UHGV virus genome: UHGV-0029170
Source of the DNA: a virus
Length of the DNA: 36,552 nucleotides
Reading direction: 5' to 3' (one strand)
Each line of letters opens with the position of its first letter. Position 1 is the first letter of the stretch. Shown here one piece after another: positions 768 through 11,179 of this stretch. Position numbers and translations under genes: made by a program. The notes beneath the pieces are model-generated. The model was not told where the DNA came from, ran no database searches, and saw only the letters and a program-made list of their open reading frames with translations.

Positions 768-1169
768 ATGGAACAAATGGCAAAGGTAGACAAGCGAACT
801 TTGAACGGCAATAACGGGACGTCACGCGGGAAAGATAAGAAGCCCCGCAAGAAGCCGACAGGCTATTATGTCCTGAAGGATGAAGTAAGGGCGGGACTGA
901 CTACCAGAATGGAATTGGTGATCGAGGCATACGGCGGCATCGCCAAAACAGCAAAGGAGTTGGGCGTTAGCATCCAAGTTGTTCAGCAGTGGATTAAGCG
1001 CGGCATGATTTCAGCCGATGGTGCTTACTTGGTGCATAAGAGTTACCGCCGCAATGACTGCAAAGGCTTCAGGGCTTCATTTTGCCGCCCGGATCTCAGA
1101 TTCGACAGCAACGGCAAGCCGATTACGCGCCGATGCGACCGCCGCGAAATGCTCCGCGTAGTCCGATAG
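768..1169 (+). CDS. Putative HTH DNA-binding protein (Cro/YdaS-like motif), Arg-rich C-terminus
   Basis: ATG at 768 preceded by GAGG 8 nt upstream; segment IAKTAKELGVSIQVVQQWIKRG looks like a helix-turn-helix; function inferred. Confidence 0.4.
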   Translation: MEQMAKVDKRTLNGNNGTSRGKDKKPRKKPTGYYVLKDEVRAGLTTRMELVIEAYGGIAKTAKELGVSIQVVQQWIKRGMISADGAYLVHKSYRRNDCKGFRASFCRPDLRFDSNGKPITRRCDRREMLRVVR

Positions 1170-1189
1170 CACAATTTGACTAACTACCA

Positions 1190-1229
1190 AACGCCTACCG
1201 GGTTATGATTCTCGCGTGGGCGTTTTTTA
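1190..1229 (+). terminator. Possible weak intrinsic terminator after ORF 768-1169
   Basis: AACGCC (1190-1195) pairs with GGCGTT (1219-1224), followed by T-run 1224-1229; loop is long, so weak. Confidence 0.25.
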
Positions 1230-1244
1230 TTTGGAGGTTATGAC

Positions 1245-2207
1245 GTGGATTTTTACGACGAAAAAGAGGTTTTGCCATACATGCCGGGGATGTGGCGCGA
1301 GGCGCTACAAAATATTTGCGGCATCCACTCCCGATACTTCAACGGCAAACACCAAGACTGCCCGAACTGCGGCGGCAAGGATCGCTTCCGCTGGACGGAC
1401 AAATTAGAGAATCGCGGCGACGGCGGGGCGTATTGCAGCGGATGCGGTGCTGATAAGGGGATCGGATGGTTGATGAAGTTAAGCGGCGAGCCGTATAGCG
1501 AGTGCATCAACATTCTTGGGCGATACCTGGGCAAAGTTCCGCAAGAGTACGTAGTTAAGCGCAACAAGCAGGTTACTCGCGATAACGGGTACGACTACGG
1601 CAAGATGGCAGATCACGATCGCGTCGTGGCGATAATGAACAGAACAGAGGCCGTCGATAGCACGCCTGTAACGCTCTATGAGGGCATTGAAAATGAGTTC
1701 GTTGAATCATACCGGGTTGGCGTAAAAACCCACGAGAACGGCAGGCAAGAGCTATTTCATGCACTACCGATGCAACTGGTACATGAAGACGGGCCGGACG
1801 ATGAATACTGCAACATCTTATTCATTGATGAGGAGGGCCGCGAGAAGATGTTAGCTGGCGACCTGACTTTCGGATCGGTGATCGTAACCAATCAGAGCGA
1901 AGGCGGTAACGGGCCGATTTACCTTGCTCGCTCTTGGGTGGAGGCGATGCACTTCAATATCGCAAGCTCGTTTAAGTGTGACGTGTGGGCATGCATCATC
2001 CCGTCCAACGTTGAGATCGTGGCCTACCGATATAAAGGAAAGGGTGGCGGCGAAGGTAAGCGAGAATTACGAGTCGTATGCAGCAGGAAAGATCGTGATA
2101 TGCTGGCGGCGGCTGAAGAACGCGATATGAAAGTTATCGTTCCGAACAATGACAACTTCAAAGGCGGATTCGAACGAAAGCTCTACGTGGCATCATCCCT
2201 TCTCTGA
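1245..2207 (+). CDS. Putative DNA primase (N-terminal zinc-ribbon CPNCGG...CSGCG)
   Basis: GTG start at 1245 with GGAGG at 1233-1237; Cys4 zinc-ribbon motif HQDCPNCGGKDRFRW...YCSGCGADKG typical of phage primase zinc-binding domains; sits next to helicase and ori-like region. Confidence 0.55.
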   Translation: MDFYDEKEVLPYMPGMWREALQNICGIHSRYFNGKHQDCPNCGGKDRFRWTDKLENRGDGGAYCSGCGADKGIGWLMKLSGEPYSECINILGRYLGKVPQEYVVKRNKQVTRDNGYDYGKMADHDRVVAIMNRTEAVDSTPVTLYEGIENEFVESYRVGVKTHENGRQELFHALPMQLVHEDGPDDEYCNILFIDEEGREKMLAGDLTFGSVIVTNQSEGGNGPIYLARSWVEAMHFNIASSFKCDVWACIIPSNVEIVAYRYKGKGGGEGKRELRVVCSRKDRDMLAAAEERDMKVIVPNNDNFKGGFERKLYVASSLL

Positions 2208-2703
2208 TTAAAACGTGAACAAATTTTAGGTAAGATTGATGATTTCAGTCTTACCTTTTTTTATGCCAAAAATTCAGCAACTTACCAACTGGTCGAACCA
2301 CTTTAGGTAAGATTTAGTAAGATGAATCTTACGTAAATTTCGCGCAAAATTTAACCAATTACACGCCATATATAGATAGTAAGTATATGATAAATAATAA
2401 TATTATTATTATTTCTCTATCTCTCTATACTTATCTTGGTAAGATTTCTCCGGGGTACGTGTCTTTTTTCGCTGGATTTCGCGCCAGATTTTTCATGGAT
2501 ATTCACCTATAGGGATCTTACCATCTTACCGATTTGCGTTAACTTTATGAAATGTATGGAAAAAACCACGTAAGATGCATCTTACTAAATCTTACGTAAA
2601 TTTCGCTCATTTTTTGACCAACCGCAGATAGCACTTTTTGACTTGCGCCGGGAATCGTCATGCGTATACTTAACGAAACGAAACCACAAATGGAGCAATA
2701 TCA
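2208..2703. repeat. AT-rich non-coding region with GGTAAGAT iterons, palindromes and direct repeats; candidate origin of replication / regulatory hub
   Basis: No ORF; GGTAAGA-N13-TCTTACC (2229-2255); GTAAGAT-2nt-ATCTTAC at 2317-2332 and 2570-2585; 18-bp direct repeat ATCTTACGTAAATTTCGC at 2326-2343 and 2589-2606; tandem ATCTTACC x2 at 2515-2530; pure A/T core 2367-2435. Confidence 0.5.
2628..2685 (+). promoter_or_regulatory. Conserved cassette copy in plus orientation (ATAGCACTTTTTGACTTGC...TATACTTAACGAAACGAAAC) upstream of exonuclease gene
   Basis: Shares Box A, a TATACT hexamer and the CGAAACGAAAC tail with the minus-strand copies; followed by RBS GGAG and ATG 2704. Confidence 0.5.
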
Positions 2704-3750
2704 ATGGCTGAAGCAATTTTCAGGGCATACACAAGCAGTGAATTGACCAACGAGCAATATCACGATCCTAATTCCTGGTGCGCGGAGTACGTTAGCGGCT
2801 CAAGCCTCGGCGAGATTTACGCAACATCCCCGGCGCACTGGAAATACAAGGTGCGCGAGGAAACCGCCGCGCTGGCGTTCGGAACCTGTTCGCATACCTG
2901 TATGCTTGAGACGGCAAAATTTAATGGCGAGTACCTGCGGGCGACTTCTCCTGGCGAGGTTAAAGATCTGATTACGTCGAAGTCGGCATTGTCTGCGAAG
3001 CTGAAAGCGTGTGGCCTGATTGGGACGTCCAACAAGGATTACCCGGAACTTCTGGAAATGGCATATCGCGCCGGGATTGACGTAAATGTTTGGTGGGCGA
3101 TTGAACTTTGCGACGAAAGCGCCGCGATGAACTCCGGGCGCAAGCTGGTTAAGGATGTTGATTTCGATGCCGTTGTTCAAATGCGAAGCGTGATGCTGGC
3201 CAACCCGCGACACGCCGCGTGTATCGAATCGCCTACCGCACAGCGTGAATTGTCAATCTTCGGTGAGATCTTCGGCGTCAAGGTCAAGGTTCGACTCGAT
3301 CATGTTGACGTTGTTTCAGATCCAGAACTAATCAAGGAGTGTGGGTTCAACCCGGATGAGGTTTTCGAGGTCGTGGTGATTACCGACTACAAAACCACGC
3401 AATCTTCCAAGCCTGACGATTTCGGGCGACTCGCCTTCAACTTGGGCTACTATCTCAAGATGGCATTGCAGCGCGATCTGTTCGTGAAGACTTACAACGA
3501 AAAACGCCCGGTAGTTGTCAGACTGCTAACGCAGGAGAAAAAATCACCGTTTGCTCCGCTGGCGTTCACCCTGACCAGCCAGCAGATCGAGATCGGTCGC
3601 AAGCAGTATCAAAGCGTGATTCATCAGTATGCGGAATGCGTGAAGCATGATTCATGGCCATCATATGAGTCAAACGCGGCGGAAGTCGTTTTGCCTACTC
3701 CGCAGTTTGTGAAATACATGTTCCCGGACGTATACGGCACAAATAGCTAA
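2704..3750 (+). CDS. PD-(D/E)xK family nuclease (putative recombination exonuclease)
   Basis: 348-aa ORF with RBS; D-x(n)-D/E-x-K-like segment ...DHVDVV...VVVITDYKTT; immediately upstream of Erf and SSB. Confidence 0.55.
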   Translation: MAEAIFRAYTSSELTNEQYHDPNSWCAEYVSGSSLGEIYATSPAHWKYKVREETAALAFGTCSHTCMLETAKFNGEYLRATSPGEVKDLITSKSALSAKLKACGLIGTSNKDYPELLEMAYRAGIDVNVWWAIELCDESAAMNSGRKLVKDVDFDAVVQMRSVMLANPRHAACIESPTAQRELSIFGEIFGVKVKVRLDHVDVVSDPELIKECGFNPDEVFEVVVITDYKTTQSSKPDDFGRLAFNLGYYLKMALQRDLFVKTYNEKRPVVVRLLTQEKKSPFAPLAFTLTSQQIEIGRKQYQSVIHQYAECVKHDSWPSYESNAAEVVLPTPQFVKYMFPDVYGTNS

Positions 3751-4495: not shown

Positions 4496-4966
4496 ATGAC
4501 AATGCATGTTGTAACAGGTGTTATCCGAAAGGAACCGTATGTCAAGGAAGGCAGCAACAATAACGGGCTGTGGAAAATGTACGCCGTAGACCTGTCGGAG
4601 CGAATGAAGATCCGCAATCGTGATGGCCAGGACGAAACGGTTTACACGAACTACCGCGCCGTTTTCTTTGCCAAAGAAAACATGATTAAGTGGTACGACG
4701 AAGCGCTGCAAATTGATAAGGTGATCAGCGTCACCTGTCGGACGCTTCAGATCGTGAACCGCGAGCACAACGGCACAATTTACAGCCACAATGAAATGAT
4801 TATGCCGCAACTAGAATTCAGCCAGCGCGAACCTGCGCAAAGCGGCGGAGGCAATCAACAATCCGGATGGGGTCAGCCTCAGCAACCGAAGCCGCAGCAA
4901 GCGCCTAAACCGCAAAACAGCGGCGGGAATCCGGGGATGGATTTCGATGATGATATCCCGTTCTAA
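4496..4966 (+). CDS. ssb: SSB-like single-stranded DNA-binding protein with host-SSB-like C-terminal tail
   Basis: C-terminus ...SGWGQPQQPKPQQAPKPQNSGGNPGMDFDDDIPF ends in the E. coli SSB tip DFDDDIPF after a Gly/Gln/Pro-rich linker; N-terminal ~110 aa compatible with a divergent OB fold. Confidence 0.6.
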   Translation: MTMHVVTGVIRKEPYVKEGSNNNGLWKMYAVDLSERMKIRNRDGQDETVYTNYRAVFFAKENMIKWYDEALQIDKVISVTCRTLQIVNREHNGTIYSHNEMIMPQLEFSQREPAQSGGGNQQSGWGQPQQPKPQQAPKPQNSGGNPGMDFDDDIPF

Positions 4967-4977
4967 CTTGACAACTA

Positions 4978-5003
4978 AAGGAGCCGAAAGGCTCCTTTTT
5001 TTT
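4978..5003 (+). terminator. Rho-independent terminator after ssb
   Basis: GGAGCC-GAAA-GGCTCC hairpin (4980-4995) followed by T8 (4996-5003). Confidence 0.75.
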
Positions 5004-5059
5004 CCTGTTTATTGATGCTATTATCTTCGTTACTCAACCAACCAAAGAGGACTAAAAAC

Positions 5060-7246
5060 ATGGCACTATACAGAGAAGGCAAAGCGGCTATGGCCGCCGA
5101 CGGAACCGTTACCGGGACTGGCACAAAATGGCAATCATCGCTTTCGCTGATTCGCCCAGGCGCGACGATTGTGTTTTTATCGTCACCAATTCAAATGGCC
5201 GTCGTAAACAAGGTGGTCAGCGACACTGAAATTAAAGCAATTACCACAAGCAGCGCTGTCGTAGAGTCTACTGACTACGCGATCCTATTAAGTGACTCTC
5301 TGACCGTTGACGGACTGGCGCAAGATGTTGCGGAAACTTTGCGCTACTATCAGTCGCAAGAAACAGTAATTGCGGATGCGGTCGAGTTCTTTAAGGAGTT
5401 CGATTTCGAATCGCTACAAAATCTTGCCAACCAAATCAAGGCAGACTCCGAAGCTGCTGAATCAAGCGCCGAGGCTGCGGCGACGTCTGAAAGTAATGCT
5501 AAAACTTCAGAGACTAAAGCCAAAGAGTCTGAAAATGCGGCAAAAAGTTCAGAGGTAGCAGCGGAGACTGCAAGAGACCAAGTACAGCAGATCATCAATG
5601 ATGCTGGCGAGCAGTCAACGCTGGTTGCGCTTGCTTCACATACGTTGCCAGGAGCATCAAAAGTCGCTCTTGCTGACGGATTTCTGAACGACTACATAAA
5701 GGAAAAAACTTATGAGTCACTTGGTGCTAAATTCGATGGCATAAACGATGATACTGCTGCGATCCAGGCAGGAAATGAGCTTGTAAAGCAGGGTTATTTA
5801 GTAAAGGCAGTAACGCCAAACGGTAGGGCGAGGATTACTTCACAAGTAACATTTTATGCTGGTTCTGGAGCTGTTGACATGGGTACGGCTTATCTGAAGC
5901 CTGATAGGAATTTGATGACTACTGGCTATGCGGCAAGGGTTATTGGAGACAATACGAGAACATATAATCTTGGCAGCAGATTGATAATCAATATGATTGG
6001 CCCATATGGTGAAATAGGTGAAAAGCCACCTACTGACACCAGTAGTATTACTACGCAACTATGCGGCCTAAATATCGACCCAGGTACTAATACACAGGTA
6101 TCTAATTTGGATATTAGTTGGAAGATCTTTGGATTCATGAAAAACGTAAGAATTGGGAGCAAGTCTGTATATTTGATTCGCGCATGGGGGCCAATGCATA
6201 GCAAAGCATGGGTTTGCAATGTTGAGTTTGACTGTCAAAATGACGCTGGAGAAAATATTAACTTCTTCGGCGGCACTGGTTCAGATTGCAGGAACTCTGA
6301 AAAAACTGCGGCTGATATCTATTCAACATCTGCAGGTCATTTTTTAGGACTGAATCTTATTGGTTATAGTCAGGATTATAATGATGTTGATTTAGACATC
6401 AATGGTGGGTACGTTTATAAATTAGCTGGTCAATTTGAAAATAACTCATTACAGCCTTATGTAAAAATGTCATATACTGTCGGTAAGCGACACCCAACTG
6501 TAATACTACAAACAGTTAATATTGATGGTGGTAATGACCAGGCGCAGGAGGCGGGAAACACTGGACGTCCTGCATGGTTTAAGATTGGTAATGGATGTAT
6601 TTTTCATGCTGACGGTGGAACATGGGGTAAGTATGATAAAATGCACAACACAAAGTTATTTGATGTAAGCGCTAATGGGCCTATTGCACTTAGCGTAAAA
6701 AATATTTACTTCGATACTTATGACGGTGTTGATAGCATAGAATGGGGAGCGCACGGAAACCCGATTAGGAATTATGATTTTAGCGATCACTCATTATCTG
6801 GTTGGAAAACAGAATATACATACCCATCAGGTGGTACACCAGTACCTCCGACGATAACGTATGACGATTCTAAGCCAATAGGAAAAGCAGTTAAAATTTC
6901 ATCGTCAGTTAGCAACGGTGGAACAACGACGCTATTCGGTCAGAAGATACCAGTAACTCCTGGAGGCATACTTTACATGTCCACAAATCTTTATTGGGAA
7001 AATATAGTCACAACAAACGGAACAGCATATTTCGGATATACGTTCTATGATGCATTTGGTGATGAAATAACGCACAACAACATAGGTGTAAACTTGAATT
7101 TGCAGCCAGCAAACGCTACAGCACCAGTTTTGTGCTCTGGTAGGGTGCGCATTCCTTCTGGTGCGGCATTTGTGCATGTTGGAATTCGCCATTATCAGAT
7201 GAGCGGAGATGTATGGATGGGTAAGATGAATGCATTTGTTCAATGA
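5060..7246 (+). CDS. Lateral tail fibre / tailspike with pectate-lyase-like (depolymerase-type) central domain; mosaic
   Basis: ATG at 5060 with AGAGGA RBS (ORF track start 5012 lacks RBS); Ala/Ser/Glu-rich fibre-like stretch; motif [17 protein letters not shown] typical of beta-helix pectate-lyase-like tailspikes; sequence after ~5.65 kb is markedly AT-rich by eye. Confidence 0.7.
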
Positions 7247-7419
7247 TTAATAATCATCAATGGATTTTCAGATAAGAGGACGAATAAATGGCATACGCAA
7301 CAATTCATACCAACTACGGCCTGCAATGGTTGGCGCAGGCCGAAACAACAGGAGTTACCTAAGAAAACATCGACATTGTTGATACATGACATATAAAGCA
7401 TCTCCAGACAACATAAGAA

Positions 7420-7447
7420 AAAGGGCCGTTCGGCCCTTTTATTTTGT
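7420..7447 (+). terminator. Rho-independent terminator for plus-strand tail fibre unit
   Basis: GGGCC-GTTC-GGCCC hairpin (7423-7436) followed by TTTTATTTTG. Confidence 0.65.
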
Positions 7448-7455
7448 CCAAAATA

Positions 7456-7477
7456 AAGACCCCTTGCGGGGTCTGTG
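7456..7477 (-). terminator. Rho-independent terminator immediately after J-like gene (minus strand)
   Basis: On minus strand: AGACCCCGCAAGGGGTCT hairpin then TTTATTTTGG, starting 2 nt after the stop at 7478. Confidence 0.65.
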
Positions 7478-10400
7478 TTAGCTGAAAGAGTTACTGTTCG
7501 TGCGGAACGCAGTTGCCGTGATGTTATCAATTGTAACGGTGTAATCGGTGACGGCATCTCGACCAGTGGCCTTCACAAAGAAGCTAACATTGTTGTTATC
7601 AGCAACCAAGTCAGCAGCGAATCGAAGTTCTACCGCAGTAGTTCCGGTGGAGATGTTACCAGCATCAATATAAATGCGGCGAACAGCCTGCTGGCCGCCA
7701 ATGTTGAAAGTTACATCAACGGTATAGCCCAAGTTTGACGCGCCAGTTCCATATGTCTCACCAATCAGCGTGCAGGAGAGAACTACAGTCATCCCATAAC
7801 CACGATTCTGGTAAGATCCATCGCGCTGCACAGTCTGGTTGCGTCGTAGCGTCATGCTGTCATAGCGTTTTGCCACTGCTATATCTCCGATAAACGCTTC
7901 TGCCTGCACTGTACCCTTAAATATACCGTCAGTCGCATAGATCGTGCCGCGAACAGTGGTGTTCTGGAATTCAGACCCACCATTCTTATTGATCATCCAT
8001 CCTTGATCCCCGGCGATGTAGTTGTTGGACTGAATGACGTTACCGATCTTCGCGTTGGTAATCGAACCGTCCTGAATAAGCGCGTTATTCATGAAAACCT
8101 GGTCATTCTGCACAACAAACGGTAGCGTATAATCACCGGATGCCGCATTGCGGATAATGGCAAATCTATCAGCAATGAAAAGCACTTGCGAAACAACGCT
8201 TCCACCACTTGCTGTAAGCTGCATGGCCATCCCGGAATTATATTCCTGTCCGTTGTACTTTAGTCCAAGTTTCATTGTATACATGGATCCAACTCCATTA
8301 ACGTCAGCCCATGAGTCTAGTTTCTGATCTAGCGCTGCGGAGTTCTCTCCAATCCTTGCTGAAAGCGCCTCTTCAGATGTAACGCGAGCCTCAGTTTCAT
8401 TGGCTAGTGCCTCATTAACTTGAGTTAATCCAGCATTGAGGTTTTCGTTGAACTCTGCCGAGATCTGGTTAACCTGCTGCACCCTGGCTTCCGTCTCATT
8501 TGCGATGAGAACTTCTGCATGTTTAATTTCAGCTTTCCTCTTTCCATTCTCCTTTTTCATTATTCTAACGTCAGCATCATTCGCCAGCGCATTTTGGATG
8601 ATACTGTTAGCGTATTCATTGAGTTTTGCCGCGCTATCCTGCGCACTATCCTGAAGTTCTTTCATCGCATCGCTGTCGAGTATCTCATCAAGGATTGTAT
8701 CCGTGATGGCGTTAACGTCAGTAGAAGACATACCGCGAGCGTAATCAGTCCATGGTGAAACGTTACCGATCCTGTCGACACTTCGCGCCTTGTACCAGTT
8801 CACATAGCCAGCGGGCAAAATTGAGTGCCAGTATTCAGCCGCCGGGTAAGGAATCAGTGTAAGCAGGCTTGCATCCTGATCGGTTCCGCTTTGCGACTGG
8901 TAAAGCTCAATGTATGCCGTGTCTTCCGCACCTTCAGGCATGGCCCACTTAACGCGAATGCCAAAGATCTCATCGTCCGACGCAAAAAGGTTAATCGGGC
9001 CTTTTGGCGCTCCGACTTTCCCGGTCAGTGTGGCGGTTGCCAACGCAGACCACGGAGACGCTACATTCCCTCCGCTAATGCACCTTACGCGCGCCTGGTA
9101 TTCACCAGCATAAATCCCTTCAATGTCAACCTGCGTTGTCGCTGTGCGCGGCACGTTGTTCCAGTTGCCGCCATCCTTACGCCATTGCACCTCGTAAAGT
9201 TTAGCGTACTGCACGGCAGACCATCCGATTACCATCGTCTCGACGCTCATCCCCTGCACAATTCGCGAGAATGAACTAATCGACACGTTTTCCGGCGCTC
9301 CCATTGAATCCGGGTCAACAACCGAAGTTGGGCGGTCGTCAGTGATTACGCCGTTGTCGATCGCGTCGTACTTGTTCGGGTTGTATTGGGTGGCTGTGAT
9401 GGCGAAAGTAAATTCGTCGTCATCGCTCCCCTTCTCAATCCTGGTAACAACGTACTGTTCAGCCGCCAGTTGGTCACTTTCGATCAGGAATACGCTGTCC
9501 GGCGCAACATCGAAGTTATATCCCACGTTTAGCGTCAGGGTTTTGCCGTCTGCTGATACGTTGGCGATGGTTCGGCGCACTGGCTTGCCGTCGTCAGTGT
9601 TCAGAATCAGCGTATCGCCCGCCTTCGCGTCGCAGCGGAAAGCTAGGAAAACCTGCGTTCCCGTTACTTCCATAATGCGACCTGACAAAACCAGGTTAAA
9701 GGCAGATTGCCAATGCGGATCTGCAACGTAAATTACATCGCCGCATGACGGGATCATGCCCTCAAGACCAGTAGAAAACGAAACGGTGGTTGCGCTTAGG
9801 TTCGTTTGCAGAATCCAGCGCCCGCGGCGGTTCGCTTCTGTCCGTCTGGTGCAACCGATCGCCGTGATGCTTGTCGGGTTATGCCCGAACCGCATTGCAG
9901 CGTCAGGGTTAAATACTGGTTCAACGTCCTGCTCGTACTGGTTTTCTTCGTCGTCGAACATCACGTTGCACGATGTGTACATCGTTTTTTCGCTCGGAAA
10001 AGTTCGCACGAATACGCCGTCAACGACGTTATCAGCAGTGAACAGGTAAACCGGATCGCGTGGCTTGTCGACGATAATCGAAAGGCTTTCCCCGTTGTAG
10101 AACGTCATTCCACGGAAGGCGGAACAAACATCCCTTACCAACTGGAACGCCTCTACCTGCGACTGCACGATCATATCCATCAGGTAACGCGGTTCCATCC
10201 CGCCTCGATTGTCCGGCACAAGCTCATCACAATATTGCGCCACCTCATAGAGCGACCACTTGTCGACCGGGATCCCTAACTCGCGCTGGTCTAACCCATA
10301 ACGCTGATTCATGATCAGATCGTAAAGAACCCAAGCCGGGTTGTTGCTCCACGCCCATTTGAAAGTTCCGTCCCACGTCCCGGCGTATGTCCTGTTAACA

Positions 10401-11179
10401 GGGTCGTAGTTGCGCGGAACCTGGACAATCTTCCACTTCTTCTTGAGCGAGATTGTCGGAATCTGGTTCTGGAACAGATCGCTATCAAACTCGACGTAAA
10501 GCATTGCCGTCAACGGGTAGCGGAATTTTGCATCAATCACCTCAGCGTAGGACTGAACCTGGAAGGCATCGACTACCTTCACCCCGTCAGCGTCCGGCGT
10601 AATTCGGCTTACGCGGATAAGCACCTGCGACGTGAAGTCTTGCGGTAGGTTGACGCGGATGCTGCGATCGTAACCGCCAGTCGTATTCTTCCCGTCGATT
10701 TTGTCGGTCAGGTAGGTTTGATAGCTCGCACCGTCAACCGCCATTTCGATCTTGTACTCAACGACCGAACCGACCATATCGCCATTATCTTTTTGCGTCA
10801 GCACGCGGGGCCATAACAGGCGGAAGCGGATAGCAGAAAGATTCTTGTTCGATACCGTCAGCGTGTACGGCGTGTTAAAGGTAACGTCGCGTGCAACCTG
10901 GAATTCAGCGCTTGATTCACTGAAGCCCTGGATGTAACTCTGCGTTTGCGTGCCGGGGCGAAATTCTGCAATAACGCCCTCATAGTTATAACTCCCGTCT
11001 TCGTTCTGAACCGGAACGCCTCCGAAATGCAACTGCTTCAGGCTGAAGTCATCCACTACTTCACCGTCAGAAACGGCCAGCAATAACTTAATCTTGTCTT
11101 TCGAGATCAGGTTATCAGGCATTTCTGCCGGGGTTCGCGTCTTGCTGGAACCGCCCTTGCGGGCCTTGATATTAGTCAT
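7478..11179 (-). CDS. Central tail fibre / host specificity protein (lambda J-like)
   Basis: 1233-aa ORF, RBS GGAGG before ATG 11179; N-terminus MTNIKARKGGSSKTRTP... and ...VLFIADRFAIIRNA... resemble lambda J; sits after I/K/L/M homologues in lambda order. Confidence 0.85.
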   Translation of the reverse strand: MTNIKARKGGSSKTRTPAEMPDNLISKDKIKLLLAVSDGEVVDDFSLKQLHFGGVPVQNEDGSYNYEGVIAEFRPGTQTQSYIQGFSESSAEFQVARDVTFNTPYTLTVSNKNLSAIRFRLLWPRVLTQKDNGDMVGSVVEYKIEMAVDGASYQTYLTDKIDGKNTTGGYDRSIRVNLPQDFTSQVLIRVSRITPDADGVKVVDAFQVQSYAEVIDAKFRYPLTAMLYVEFDSDLFQNQIPTISLKKKWKIVQVPRNYDPVNRTYAGTWDGTFKWAWSNNPAWVLYDLIMNQRYGLDQRELGIPVDKWSLYEVAQYCDELVPDNRGGMEPRYLMDMIVQSQVEAFQLVRDVCSAFRGMTFYNGESLSIIVDKPRDPVYLFTADNVVDGVFVRTFPSEKTMYTSCNVMFDDEENQYEQDVEPVFNPDAAMRFGHNPTSITAIGCTRRTEANRRGRWILQTNLSATTVSFSTGLEGMIPSCGDVIYVADPHWQSAFNLVLSGRIMEVTGTQVFLAFRCDAKAGDTLILNTDDGKPVRRTIANVSADGKTLTLNVGYNFDVAPDSVFLIESDQLAAEQYVVTRIEKGSDDDEFTFAITATQYNPNKYDAIDNGVITDDRPTSVVDPDSMGAPENVSISSFSRIVQGMSVETMVIGWSAVQYAKLYEVQWRKDGGNWNNVPRTATTQVDIEGIYAGEYQARVRCISGGNVASPWSALATATLTGKVGAPKGPINLFASDDEIFGIRVKWAMPEGAEDTAYIELYQSQSGTDQDASLLTLIPYPAAEYWHSILPAGYVNWYKARSVDRIGNVSPWTDYARGMSSTDVNAITDTILDEILDSDAMKELQDSAQDSAAKLNEYANSIIQNALANDADVRIMKKENGKRKAEIKHAEVLIANETEARVQQVNQISAEFNENLNAGLTQVNEALANETEARVTSEEALSARIGENSAALDQKLDSWADVNGVGSMYTMKLGLKYNGQEYNSGMAMQLTASGGSVVSQVLFIADRFAIIRNAASGDYTLPFVVQNDQVFMNNALIQDGSITNAKIGNVIQSNNYIAGDQGWMINKNGGSEFQNTTVRGTIYATDGIFKGTVQAEAFIGDIAVAKRYDSMTLRRNQTVQRDGSYQNRGYGMTVVLSCTLIGETYGTGASNLGYTVDVTFNIGGQQAVRRIYIDAGNISTGTTAVELRFAADLVADNNNVSFFVKATGRDAVTDYTVTIDNITATAFRTNSNSFS

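Follow-up and report, generated by a model that had tools for sequence, protein, structure and literature searches.

A chimeric side tailspike in a Klebsiella Webervirus: a genus-conserved anchor carrying a probably imported module with a predicted beta-helix depolymerase fold

The tailspike gene at positions 5060-7246 of the virus genome UHGV-0029170 (the window, that is, the whole stretch of 36,552 nucleotides that was analysed) codes for a protein of 728 amino acids (aa) that is very likely a two-part chimeric side tailspike, in which a Webervirus anchor carries an imported depolymerase module. The window is a metagenome-assembled Klebsiella Webervirus (Drexlerviridae, a KP36/T1-like siphovirus): a 24-kb backbone query is 97% covered at 95% identity by vB_KpnS-KLPN4 and at least 80% covered in 192 records. 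The two parts of the gene are separated by a shift in base composition and by homology breakpoints, and the distal part has a counterpart of about 93% DNA identity in a large myovirus that is unrelated to the Weberviruses. Residues 1-184 (the genus-conserved anchor and a helical bundle) would dock the side tailspike on the tail, and residues 185-728, which open with QSTLVALA, would form a portable module made of a short neck, a cap-opened right-handed beta-helix and a sandwich domain resembling a carbohydrate-binding module (CBM). The parts of the gene are as follows.

5060-7246, plus strand: tailspike / tail-fibre depolymerase gene, 728 aa (list of open reading frames, PHROG, similarity to KpS2)
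5060-5611, plus strand: genus-conserved virion anchor and Ala/Ser/Glu-rich helical bundle (aa 1-184), GC 0.50 (homology)
5612-5627, plus strand: 5' crossover zone, the QSTLV codons (aa 185-189 and the first base of codon 190; blastn edges, alignment)
5628-7246, plus strand: AT-rich receptor-binding / enzymatic module (aa 190-728), GC 0.41, GC at third codon positions (GC3) 0.33 (homology, composition)

Residues 1-193 align with residues 1-193 of Depo32 (phmmer E 2e-99), with no match further along, and this stretch matches the solved structures of Depo32 (7VYV, 7VZ3) and DpK2 (7LZJ) with E values of 1e-98 to 1e-99. A megablast search with 4900-7600 returned 345 phage records, nearly all of them Klebsiella Weberviruses, and in all but a handful the DNA match ends at 5627-5635. 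Only KpS2 and phi1_146057 match through the entire gene; a third exception, vB_KpnM_VIK251, matches its distal part only. By blastn, homology to the Weberviruses GH-K3 and Snook stops at 5625-5627 and homology to VIK251 starts at 5612, so that only in the 16-nucleotide overlap (5612-5627) does homology to other Weberviruses coincide with homology to the VIK251 Mydovirus gene. The neck motif QSTLVALA (aa 185-192) begins there, and QSTL(V/S)xLA is common to all three aligned proteins. In Depo32, a Webervirus K2 depolymerase of solved structure, the anchor and helical bundle end with residue 185, and residue 186 is the first of the neck helix (PMC10581125); the crossover therefore falls at a structural domain boundary. 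The initial annotation had described the gene as a mosaic, with an Ala/Ser/Glu-rich fibre shaft conserved at its N-terminus. The gene is indeed a mosaic, as homology to GH-K3, Snook and about 340 further records with other C-terminal modules ends at 5625-5627, and the Ala/Ser/Glu-rich character is found over residues 120-190. The conservation of the N-terminal part also holds, but anchor and helical bundle, as in Depo32 (PMC10581125), is a better description than fibre shaft, and comparison with related phages, which had been proposed as the means of locating the breakpoint, moves it to 5612-5627, about 30 codons before the GAKFDG motif.

The base composition changes within the same gene. GC drops from 0.495 (GC3 0.48) over 5060-5647 to 0.410 (GC3 0.327) over 5648-7243. 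Compared with the 32 other genes in the window, in which GC3 is 0.609±0.038 in windows of 532 codons with a minimum of 0.496, the module lies at z = -7.3, and its codon adaptation to the window's own usage is 0.544 against 0.715±0.027 (z = -6.3). The 1596-nucleotide stretch of lowest GC in the whole 36.5-kb window begins at 5680, and the maximum-likelihood GC change points lie at 5680 and 7458. ATA codons number 24.4 per 1000 in the module and 1.8 elsewhere, TTA codons 13.2 and 6.2, while AGA and AGG together make up 67% of the Arg codons in the module and 13% elsewhere. The predicted change in composition at about 5.65 kb is thus borne out, and uniform GC and codon usage, the result that would have counted against it, is not what the computation gave: the module is far outside the rest of the contig. 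Among the codons said to mark the AT-rich part, ATA and TTA are raised as claimed and AGA by itself only mildly so. Similarly, the anchor resembles the rest of the genome, as had been stated, in its GC of 0.495, but its GC3 of 0.48 is at the low edge of the genome range. Because the Ala/Ser/Glu-rich bundle already has A-ending codons, the GC3 change point inside the gene is at 5486, upstream of the homology breakpoint; the junction was therefore placed by GC at all positions and by the homology edges, and not by the GC3 change point.

A shift of this kind could be intrinsic to the domain, imposed by its amino acid content or by selection for slow translation and folding of a beta-helix, with no horizontal transfer involved. 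The module does have a GC of about 0.41-0.42 in every host, and is even slightly richer in GC than its neighbours in a genome of GC 0.39; moreover, GC3 is lowish (0.48) in the anchor too. However, synonymous third positions show the shift most strongly (GC3 of 0.33 against 0.61), the identity to the gene of an unrelated myovirus reaches 92.7% at the DNA level with sharp homology edges, and about 340 Weberviruses have unrelated sequence past the same point, all of which makes an intrinsic origin of the AT-richness very improbable.

VIK251 is a 142-kb Mydovirus (Vequintavirinae), a myovirus, and 5612-7331 of the window is 91.2% identical in DNA to its gene. Over the 1596 nucleotides of the module, DNA identity is 99.0% to phi1_146057, 94.2% to KpS2 and 92.7% to VIK251; the corresponding amino acid identities are 99.2% and 96.4% for the two Weberviruses and, for the VIK251 protein, VIK251_00052, 95.9% over the 532-aa module (94% over a 555-aa BLASTP alignment from aa 174 to the end). 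VIK251_00052, a protein of 591 aa annotated as hypothetical, is encoded in a baseplate/tail gene cluster and has the module on a 59-aa Mydovirus anchor. More divergent copies are found in a second Webervirus lineage (P0003, in several contigs of about 50 kb; 83.4% DNA identity) and in a 149-kb phage contig (P0004; 79.8%). P0003 and P0004 are 88.7% identical in nucleotides, closer to one another than P0003 is to the window, and therefore at least two transfers between siphoviruses and myoviruses have to be assumed. Remoter relatives (64% to 44% aa identity) come from a 157-kb phage, jumbo phages with a size of about 250-300 kb and Serratia (prophage-like) DNA. An exhaustive profile search among 1.8 billion sequences gave 918 representatives at E<1e-3, of which 53 were at E<1e-30 and about 14 were close. 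Other N-terminal parts also carry the module: it occurs in proteins that have PF18668/PF27114, PF26208 or PF12571 domains, and one more anchor is that of P0162. The latter, an 846-aa protein from a contig of about 40 kb and a member of the same 90% cluster as the window protein, has the module and the end of the helical bundle on a different, longer anchor (MTIVAANWIGENTATVG). A 298-aa fragment 95% identical to the module (P0019, on a contig of 1115 bp) is listed under Staphylococcus epidermidis as a hypothetical protein, partial, most likely through contamination of that assembly by Klebsiella phage DNA.

As the window is a contig of a metagenomic Logan/ENA assembly, the junction might in principle have been created by the joining of Webervirus and Mydovirus reads. 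But the same junction and the full-length gene are present in KpS2 (94% nucleotide identity) and phi1_146057 (99%), two phages that were isolated independently and sequenced completely, and the junction recurs in further contigs; the likelihood of an assembly chimera is negligible.

Horizontal acquisition, which the initial annotation had suggested, is upheld by the DNA identity of about 92.7% to the gene of an unrelated myovirus and by a module GC that fits low-GC myoviruses (0.39-0.44) and not the backbone (0.50). In every genome that carries it, the module has a GC of 0.41-0.42 and a GC3 of 0.33-0.37, while the flanks have a GC of 0.49-0.51 in Weberviruses, 0.44 in the Mydovirus (in which the GC3 of neighbouring genes is 0.36-0.46) and 0.39 in the 149-kb contig. 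These figures favour import into Weberviruses from a lower-GC phage pool. A Mydovirus has a copy that is 93% identical in DNA, and the composition would not yet have been ameliorated in the new backbone. In the reverse direction, Weberviruses would be where the module arose, and Mydovirus and other large myoviruses would have received it from them. Weberviruses do contain three of the four copies with DNA identity of at least 92%, and the Webervirus copies form two sub-lineages. Yet the module (GC 0.41, GC3 0.33-0.37) resembles Mydovirus genes (0.40-0.45 and 0.36-0.46) and is far from the backbone (0.50 and 0.61), and the remoter relatives are all in large myoviruses, jumbo phages or prophage-like Serratia DNA. 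Export is thus quite unlikely, and import from a lower-GC pool is the direction we infer.

The exchange has a second boundary, located past the stop codon.

7247-7287, plus strand: 3' untranslated flank moved with the module (in the Mydovirus copy and KpS2, and not in Weberviruses with other modules)
7288-7362, plus strand: 24-codon stub open reading frame, MAYATIHTNYGLQWLAQAETTGVT followed by a stop codon, with its own ribosome-binding site; its start forms the 3' crossover zone, 7287-7331, common to Weberviruses and Mydoviruses (blastn edges, translation alignment)

Homology to VIK251 runs 85 nucleotides beyond the stop, to 7331, and homology to Snook, which has an unrelated module, restarts at 7287. 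The AT-rich character had been said to continue through the gap at 7247-7420; the gap is AT-rich (GC 0.385), but most of it is not imported, since from 7287 on it is intergenic DNA of the Webervirus backbone. By blastn, the 3' flank matches many Weberviruses and several Mydoviruses, in each case downstream of the equivalent tailspike, and also the exact starts of two tail-fibre genes, Mica_016 (PF12571) of Burkholderia phage Mica, which directly follows a tailspike gene, and ep3_0042 of Escherichia phage ep3. The stub translations align (MSYKTIHTNYGLQRMAAAEATGV and MPFLTIHTNYGLQKLAQAESTG), with 16-18 of the first 23 codons identical; the match of the stub to the PF12571 hidden Markov model has an E value of 0.018 and, at 15.4 bits, is under the curated cutoff of 23. 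From these alignments we read the stub as a fossil left from the beginning of a tail-fibre gene of the PF12571 (P2 gpH-type) kind, a truncated and presumably non-functional relic. Two Mydovirus proteins, KB57_053 and VIK251_00052, share their first 45 or so residues and diverge at the same QS.L..LA junction, and both genes are accompanied by the stub. At this equivalent Mydovirus locus (1009-3100 in KB57, 5824-7720 in VIK251) the modules are unrelated, and KB57_053 is annotated with 'colanic acid degradation'.

Judged from the sequences compared, the exchangeable unit is bracketed by the same two conserved patches in Webervirus and in Mydovirus. The module would have come by homologous recombination between the QSTL..LA neck patch on the 5' side and the PF12571 fossil past the stop on the 3' side. 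In the few genomes concerned, recombination at these two patches would be the most parsimonious way for the unit to cross between families. Possibly, though we hold this more tentatively than the chimera itself and think it somewhat doubtful, the tailspike module is a cassette between two conserved "landing pads" that are kept in unrelated genera and allow it to move across families by homologous recombination, the 5' pad being the neck-coding QS(T/V)L..LA....GA.K.GL and the 3' pad the fossil of the PF12571 gene past the stop. If so, the stub would persist because of the recombination homology that it supplies.

The module itself was modelled as a monomer with AlphaFold2 from an alignment of 19 sequences. 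The model has a mean predicted local distance difference test (pLDDT) score of 88 and a predicted template modelling (TM) score of 0.84; its only unreliable portions are one loop and the initial 19 residues, which form the neck and would require the trimer. The following elements were delimited.

5702-6775, plus strand: right-handed parallel beta-helix domain (about aa 215-572; predicted model)
5723-5773, plus strand: 17-residue N-terminal cap motif of the beta-helix, with GAKFDGxxDDTAAIQ (aa 222-238; sequence, profile matches)
6788-7243, plus strand: C-terminal CBM-like beta-sandwich (about aa 577-728; model strands 391-535)
6251-6439, plus strand: candidate catalytic rungs, with E398 (DAGEN, 6251-6253), S437, D439, Y440 and D442 (YSQDYND, 6368-6385) and E460 (QFENN, 6437-6439)

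The predicted core is a single-stranded right-handed parallel beta-helix. As had been noted before, a cap motif opens the AT-rich domain (aa 222-238): it conforms to GA.GDG..DDT.AiQ, and residues 40-50 of the model form a helix after it. When the family profile is compared with solved structures (5JS4, 5M5Z, 6E0V, 7CHU), only the cap (GAKxDGvtDDtaAiq) aligns, matching the phiAB6 tailspike (1.8e-9), a GH55 glucanase, phi92 gp150 and the pectin lyase of phage E2. The best full-length Foldseek matches are the K2-2 tailspike (E 1e-15, TM 0.66), Kp7 gp52 and CBA120 TSP4, and viral predicted structures agree with this fold assignment. The last 150 residues or so match CBM22, CBM4, CBM16, CBM61 and a porphyran-binding CBM (TM per target 0.58-0.72), and the Pfam scan gave no CBM sequence match for this sandwich; by analogy, the domain probably assists trimer packing and/or glycan binding. 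Pfam scans, run on the complete protein and separately on its beta-helix and C-terminal portions, found no family on the module, even at E values up to 10, and a single-sequence search of the PDB matched the anchor alone. The pectate-lyase-like beta-helix that had been proposed is therefore retained as a predicted fold (pLDDT 88) with its cap, but not as a member of the Pfam pectate-lyase / beta-helix families of the PF12708 type, to which the likeness is one of fold and cap motif only.

The module most likely trimerises, and it most likely binds and cleaves one type of Klebsiella capsular polysaccharide. Cleavage would probably be by glycoside hydrolysis via E398, D439/D442 and E460, which sit on successive predicted rungs; all 65 family members compared have E398, E460, S437 and Y440, and 91-94% of them have D439 and D442. 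K2-2, the best structural match, acts as a retaining glycosidase through a Glu267/Glu323 pair located between subunits, and it needs its C-terminal sandwich to trimerise (PMC10936425); a catalytic role of the conserved acidic residues of the module is suggested by analogy. Alternatively, the module could act as a lyase on polysaccharide or as an esterase, or it could be a beta-helix that binds without catalysis. We keep the lyase and non-catalytic alternatives in consideration because the fold scores do not discriminate, but consider it unlikely that the module is anything other than a glycoside hydrolase: glycosidase tailspikes (K2-2, CBA120 TSP4/TSP2) head the full-length structural matches, two Glu and one Asp on successive rungs are conserved across the family, and there is no SGNH or other esterase domain. 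Cleavage of the capsule by the putative hydrolase would set the capsule-type (K-type) host range and give haloes around plaques.

The gene lies where KP36-like depolymerases are found, between the ssb/recombination genes and a convergent J-like gene, and the order erf, ssb, tailspike and convergent J-like central fibre is the same in KpS2, phi1_146057, GH-K3 and Snook. PHROG tail-fibre families match its product (best E 2e-90), the exact sequence of which falls in the same 90% cluster as relatives such as P0162. The transcription unit is delimited as follows.

4977-4998, plus strand: intrinsic terminator after ssb, the 5' limit of the tailspike transcription unit (terminator scan, sequence)
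5045-5051, plus strand: ribosome-binding site AAGAGGA, 8 nucleotides before the ATG at 5060 (direct reading of the sequence)
7419-7440, either strand: bidirectional intrinsic terminator closing the tailspike unit (terminator scan)
7457-7474, minus strand: terminator of the convergent J-like central-fibre gene (7478-11179; terminator scan, list of open reading frames)

The listed open reading frame spans 5012 (TTG) to 7246, but translation starts from the ATG at 5060. The upstream TTG was discarded as a start because it is just past the ssb terminator and has no ribosome-binding site, and because the relatives begin with MALYREG. No convincing sigma-70 promoter candidate was found between the ssb terminator and the start codon of the tailspike gene.

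In a sliding comparison of the window with phi1_146057, identity is 98-100% between about 4950 (at the ssb terminator) and about 7250 (at the stop), against about 84% upstream and about 70% downstream; the terminator at 4977-4998 is thus near the start of a block that is 99% identical. The genes upstream of the tailspike unit are closest to KpS2 (94-99%), and the sequence that follows 7250 has 98-100% identity with a contig of the P0003 type. A block of 99% identity with divergent flanks implies that the whole tailspike transcription unit, from the terminator to the stop codon, has also moved between Webervirus backbones, and the sequence comparison indicates that this transfer of the complete gene within the genus is recent and would be younger than the import of the module. 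The 3' end of the J-like gene (7250-8400, minus strand) is 99.6% identical to the P0003-type contig (L006), and only about half of it aligns to KpS2 and phi1_146057, at about 79%; the distal central fibre thus forms a mosaic block of its own, and its history is unlike that of the adjacent tailspike. Elsewhere in the window, a non-coding, AT-rich gap of about 500 bp (2208-2703, GC about 0.37) between a primase-like and an exonuclease VIII-like gene contains at least eight copies of GGTAAGATT / AATCTTACG, in both orientations, and two GTAAGATG.ATCTTAC palindromes. These repeats look like iterons or operators, and the gap is a candidate replication origin or regulatory region.

Among characterised proteins, Depo32 of GH-K3 (7VZ3, 7VYV) and DpK2, of the same length (7LZJ), are encoded at the same locus and are about 90% identical to the window protein in the anchor and bundle (aa 1-193). 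The swap point corresponds to the neck-helix boundary of Depo32 (about residue 185), and the two proteins share the plan of anchor, neck, beta-helix and CBM-like domain. Unlike Depo32 (907 aa), however, the window protein (728 aa) has neither the extra connection domain nor the C-terminal helix bundle; there is no sequence similarity after aa 193, the conserved acidic residues differ, and the K2 specificity of Depo32 is not transferable to the window protein. K2-2 (8IQ9, 8IQ5, 8IQE) and Kp7 gp52 (7XYC) are like the module in that the beta-helix is followed directly by a C-terminal beta-sandwich, but K2-2 is only 15% identical, has another N-terminal particle-binding domain, and its catalytic residues are not equated with those of the module. 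KpS2 gp24 ('tailspike depolymerase') and the phi1_146057 'tail fiber protein' are the same full-length chimera as the window protein, whereas VIK251_00052 differs from it in its short Mydovirus anchor and in its baseplate gene cluster. Our literature search found no published biochemical characterisation of VIK251_00052, KpS2 gp24 or the phi1_146057 protein. The K24 phage vB_KpnS_Kp13 has a different depolymerase of 762 aa and is absent from the full-length matches.

A conserved KP36-like anchor with a variable depolymerase is textbook knowledge for the genus Webervirus (PMC10581125). A preprint reports a conserved N-terminal chassis with swapped receptor-binding domains, and Webervirus/Mydovirus pairs with about 90% identity in these domains, as a sign of recent exchange between phages of different morphotypes (bioRxiv 10.64898/2026.05.12.724579). 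The passages of the preprint that were consulted make no mention of the PF12571 stub or of nucleotide breakpoints (bioRxiv 10.64898/2026.05.12.724579), and KpS2 and VIK251 are not listed in its supplements (bioRxiv 10.64898/2026.05.12.724579). Near-identical genes are already public, and the present case is a clear but ordinary swap of a host-range module, in which only the two boundary elements are mildly new, the PF12571 fossil most of all.

Several observations weigh against the account given here. No Pfam, NCBI-style or solved-structure sequence match spans the catalytic part, and the assignment as an enzyme is therefore made on fold and conservation only; moreover, no solved tailspike is more than 15% identical in sequence. 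With respect to the origin of the module, its GC3 (0.33-0.37) fits that of its Mydovirus neighbours (0.36-0.46) only roughly, so that some other phage may have been the actual donor. The role of the stub in recombination is deduced from homology edges that coincide in a handful of genomes. Finally, the Webervirus/Mydovirus pair in the preprint is reported to be KL24-specific, and no tie between that pair and the module in the window was found (bioRxiv 10.64898/2026.05.12.724579).

That receptor-binding proteins are exchanged as modules is a principle that is already well established. The Klebsiella capsule type that this phage can strip and infect is very probably determined by the module, which would then be the part to change for host-range engineering or to express as an anti-virulence enzyme. 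It represents a putative depolymerase family with no Pfam model, solved structure or known substrate. The mapped breakpoints and the two boundary elements may serve as precise, naturally validated splice points for swaps between siphovirus and myovirus chassis.

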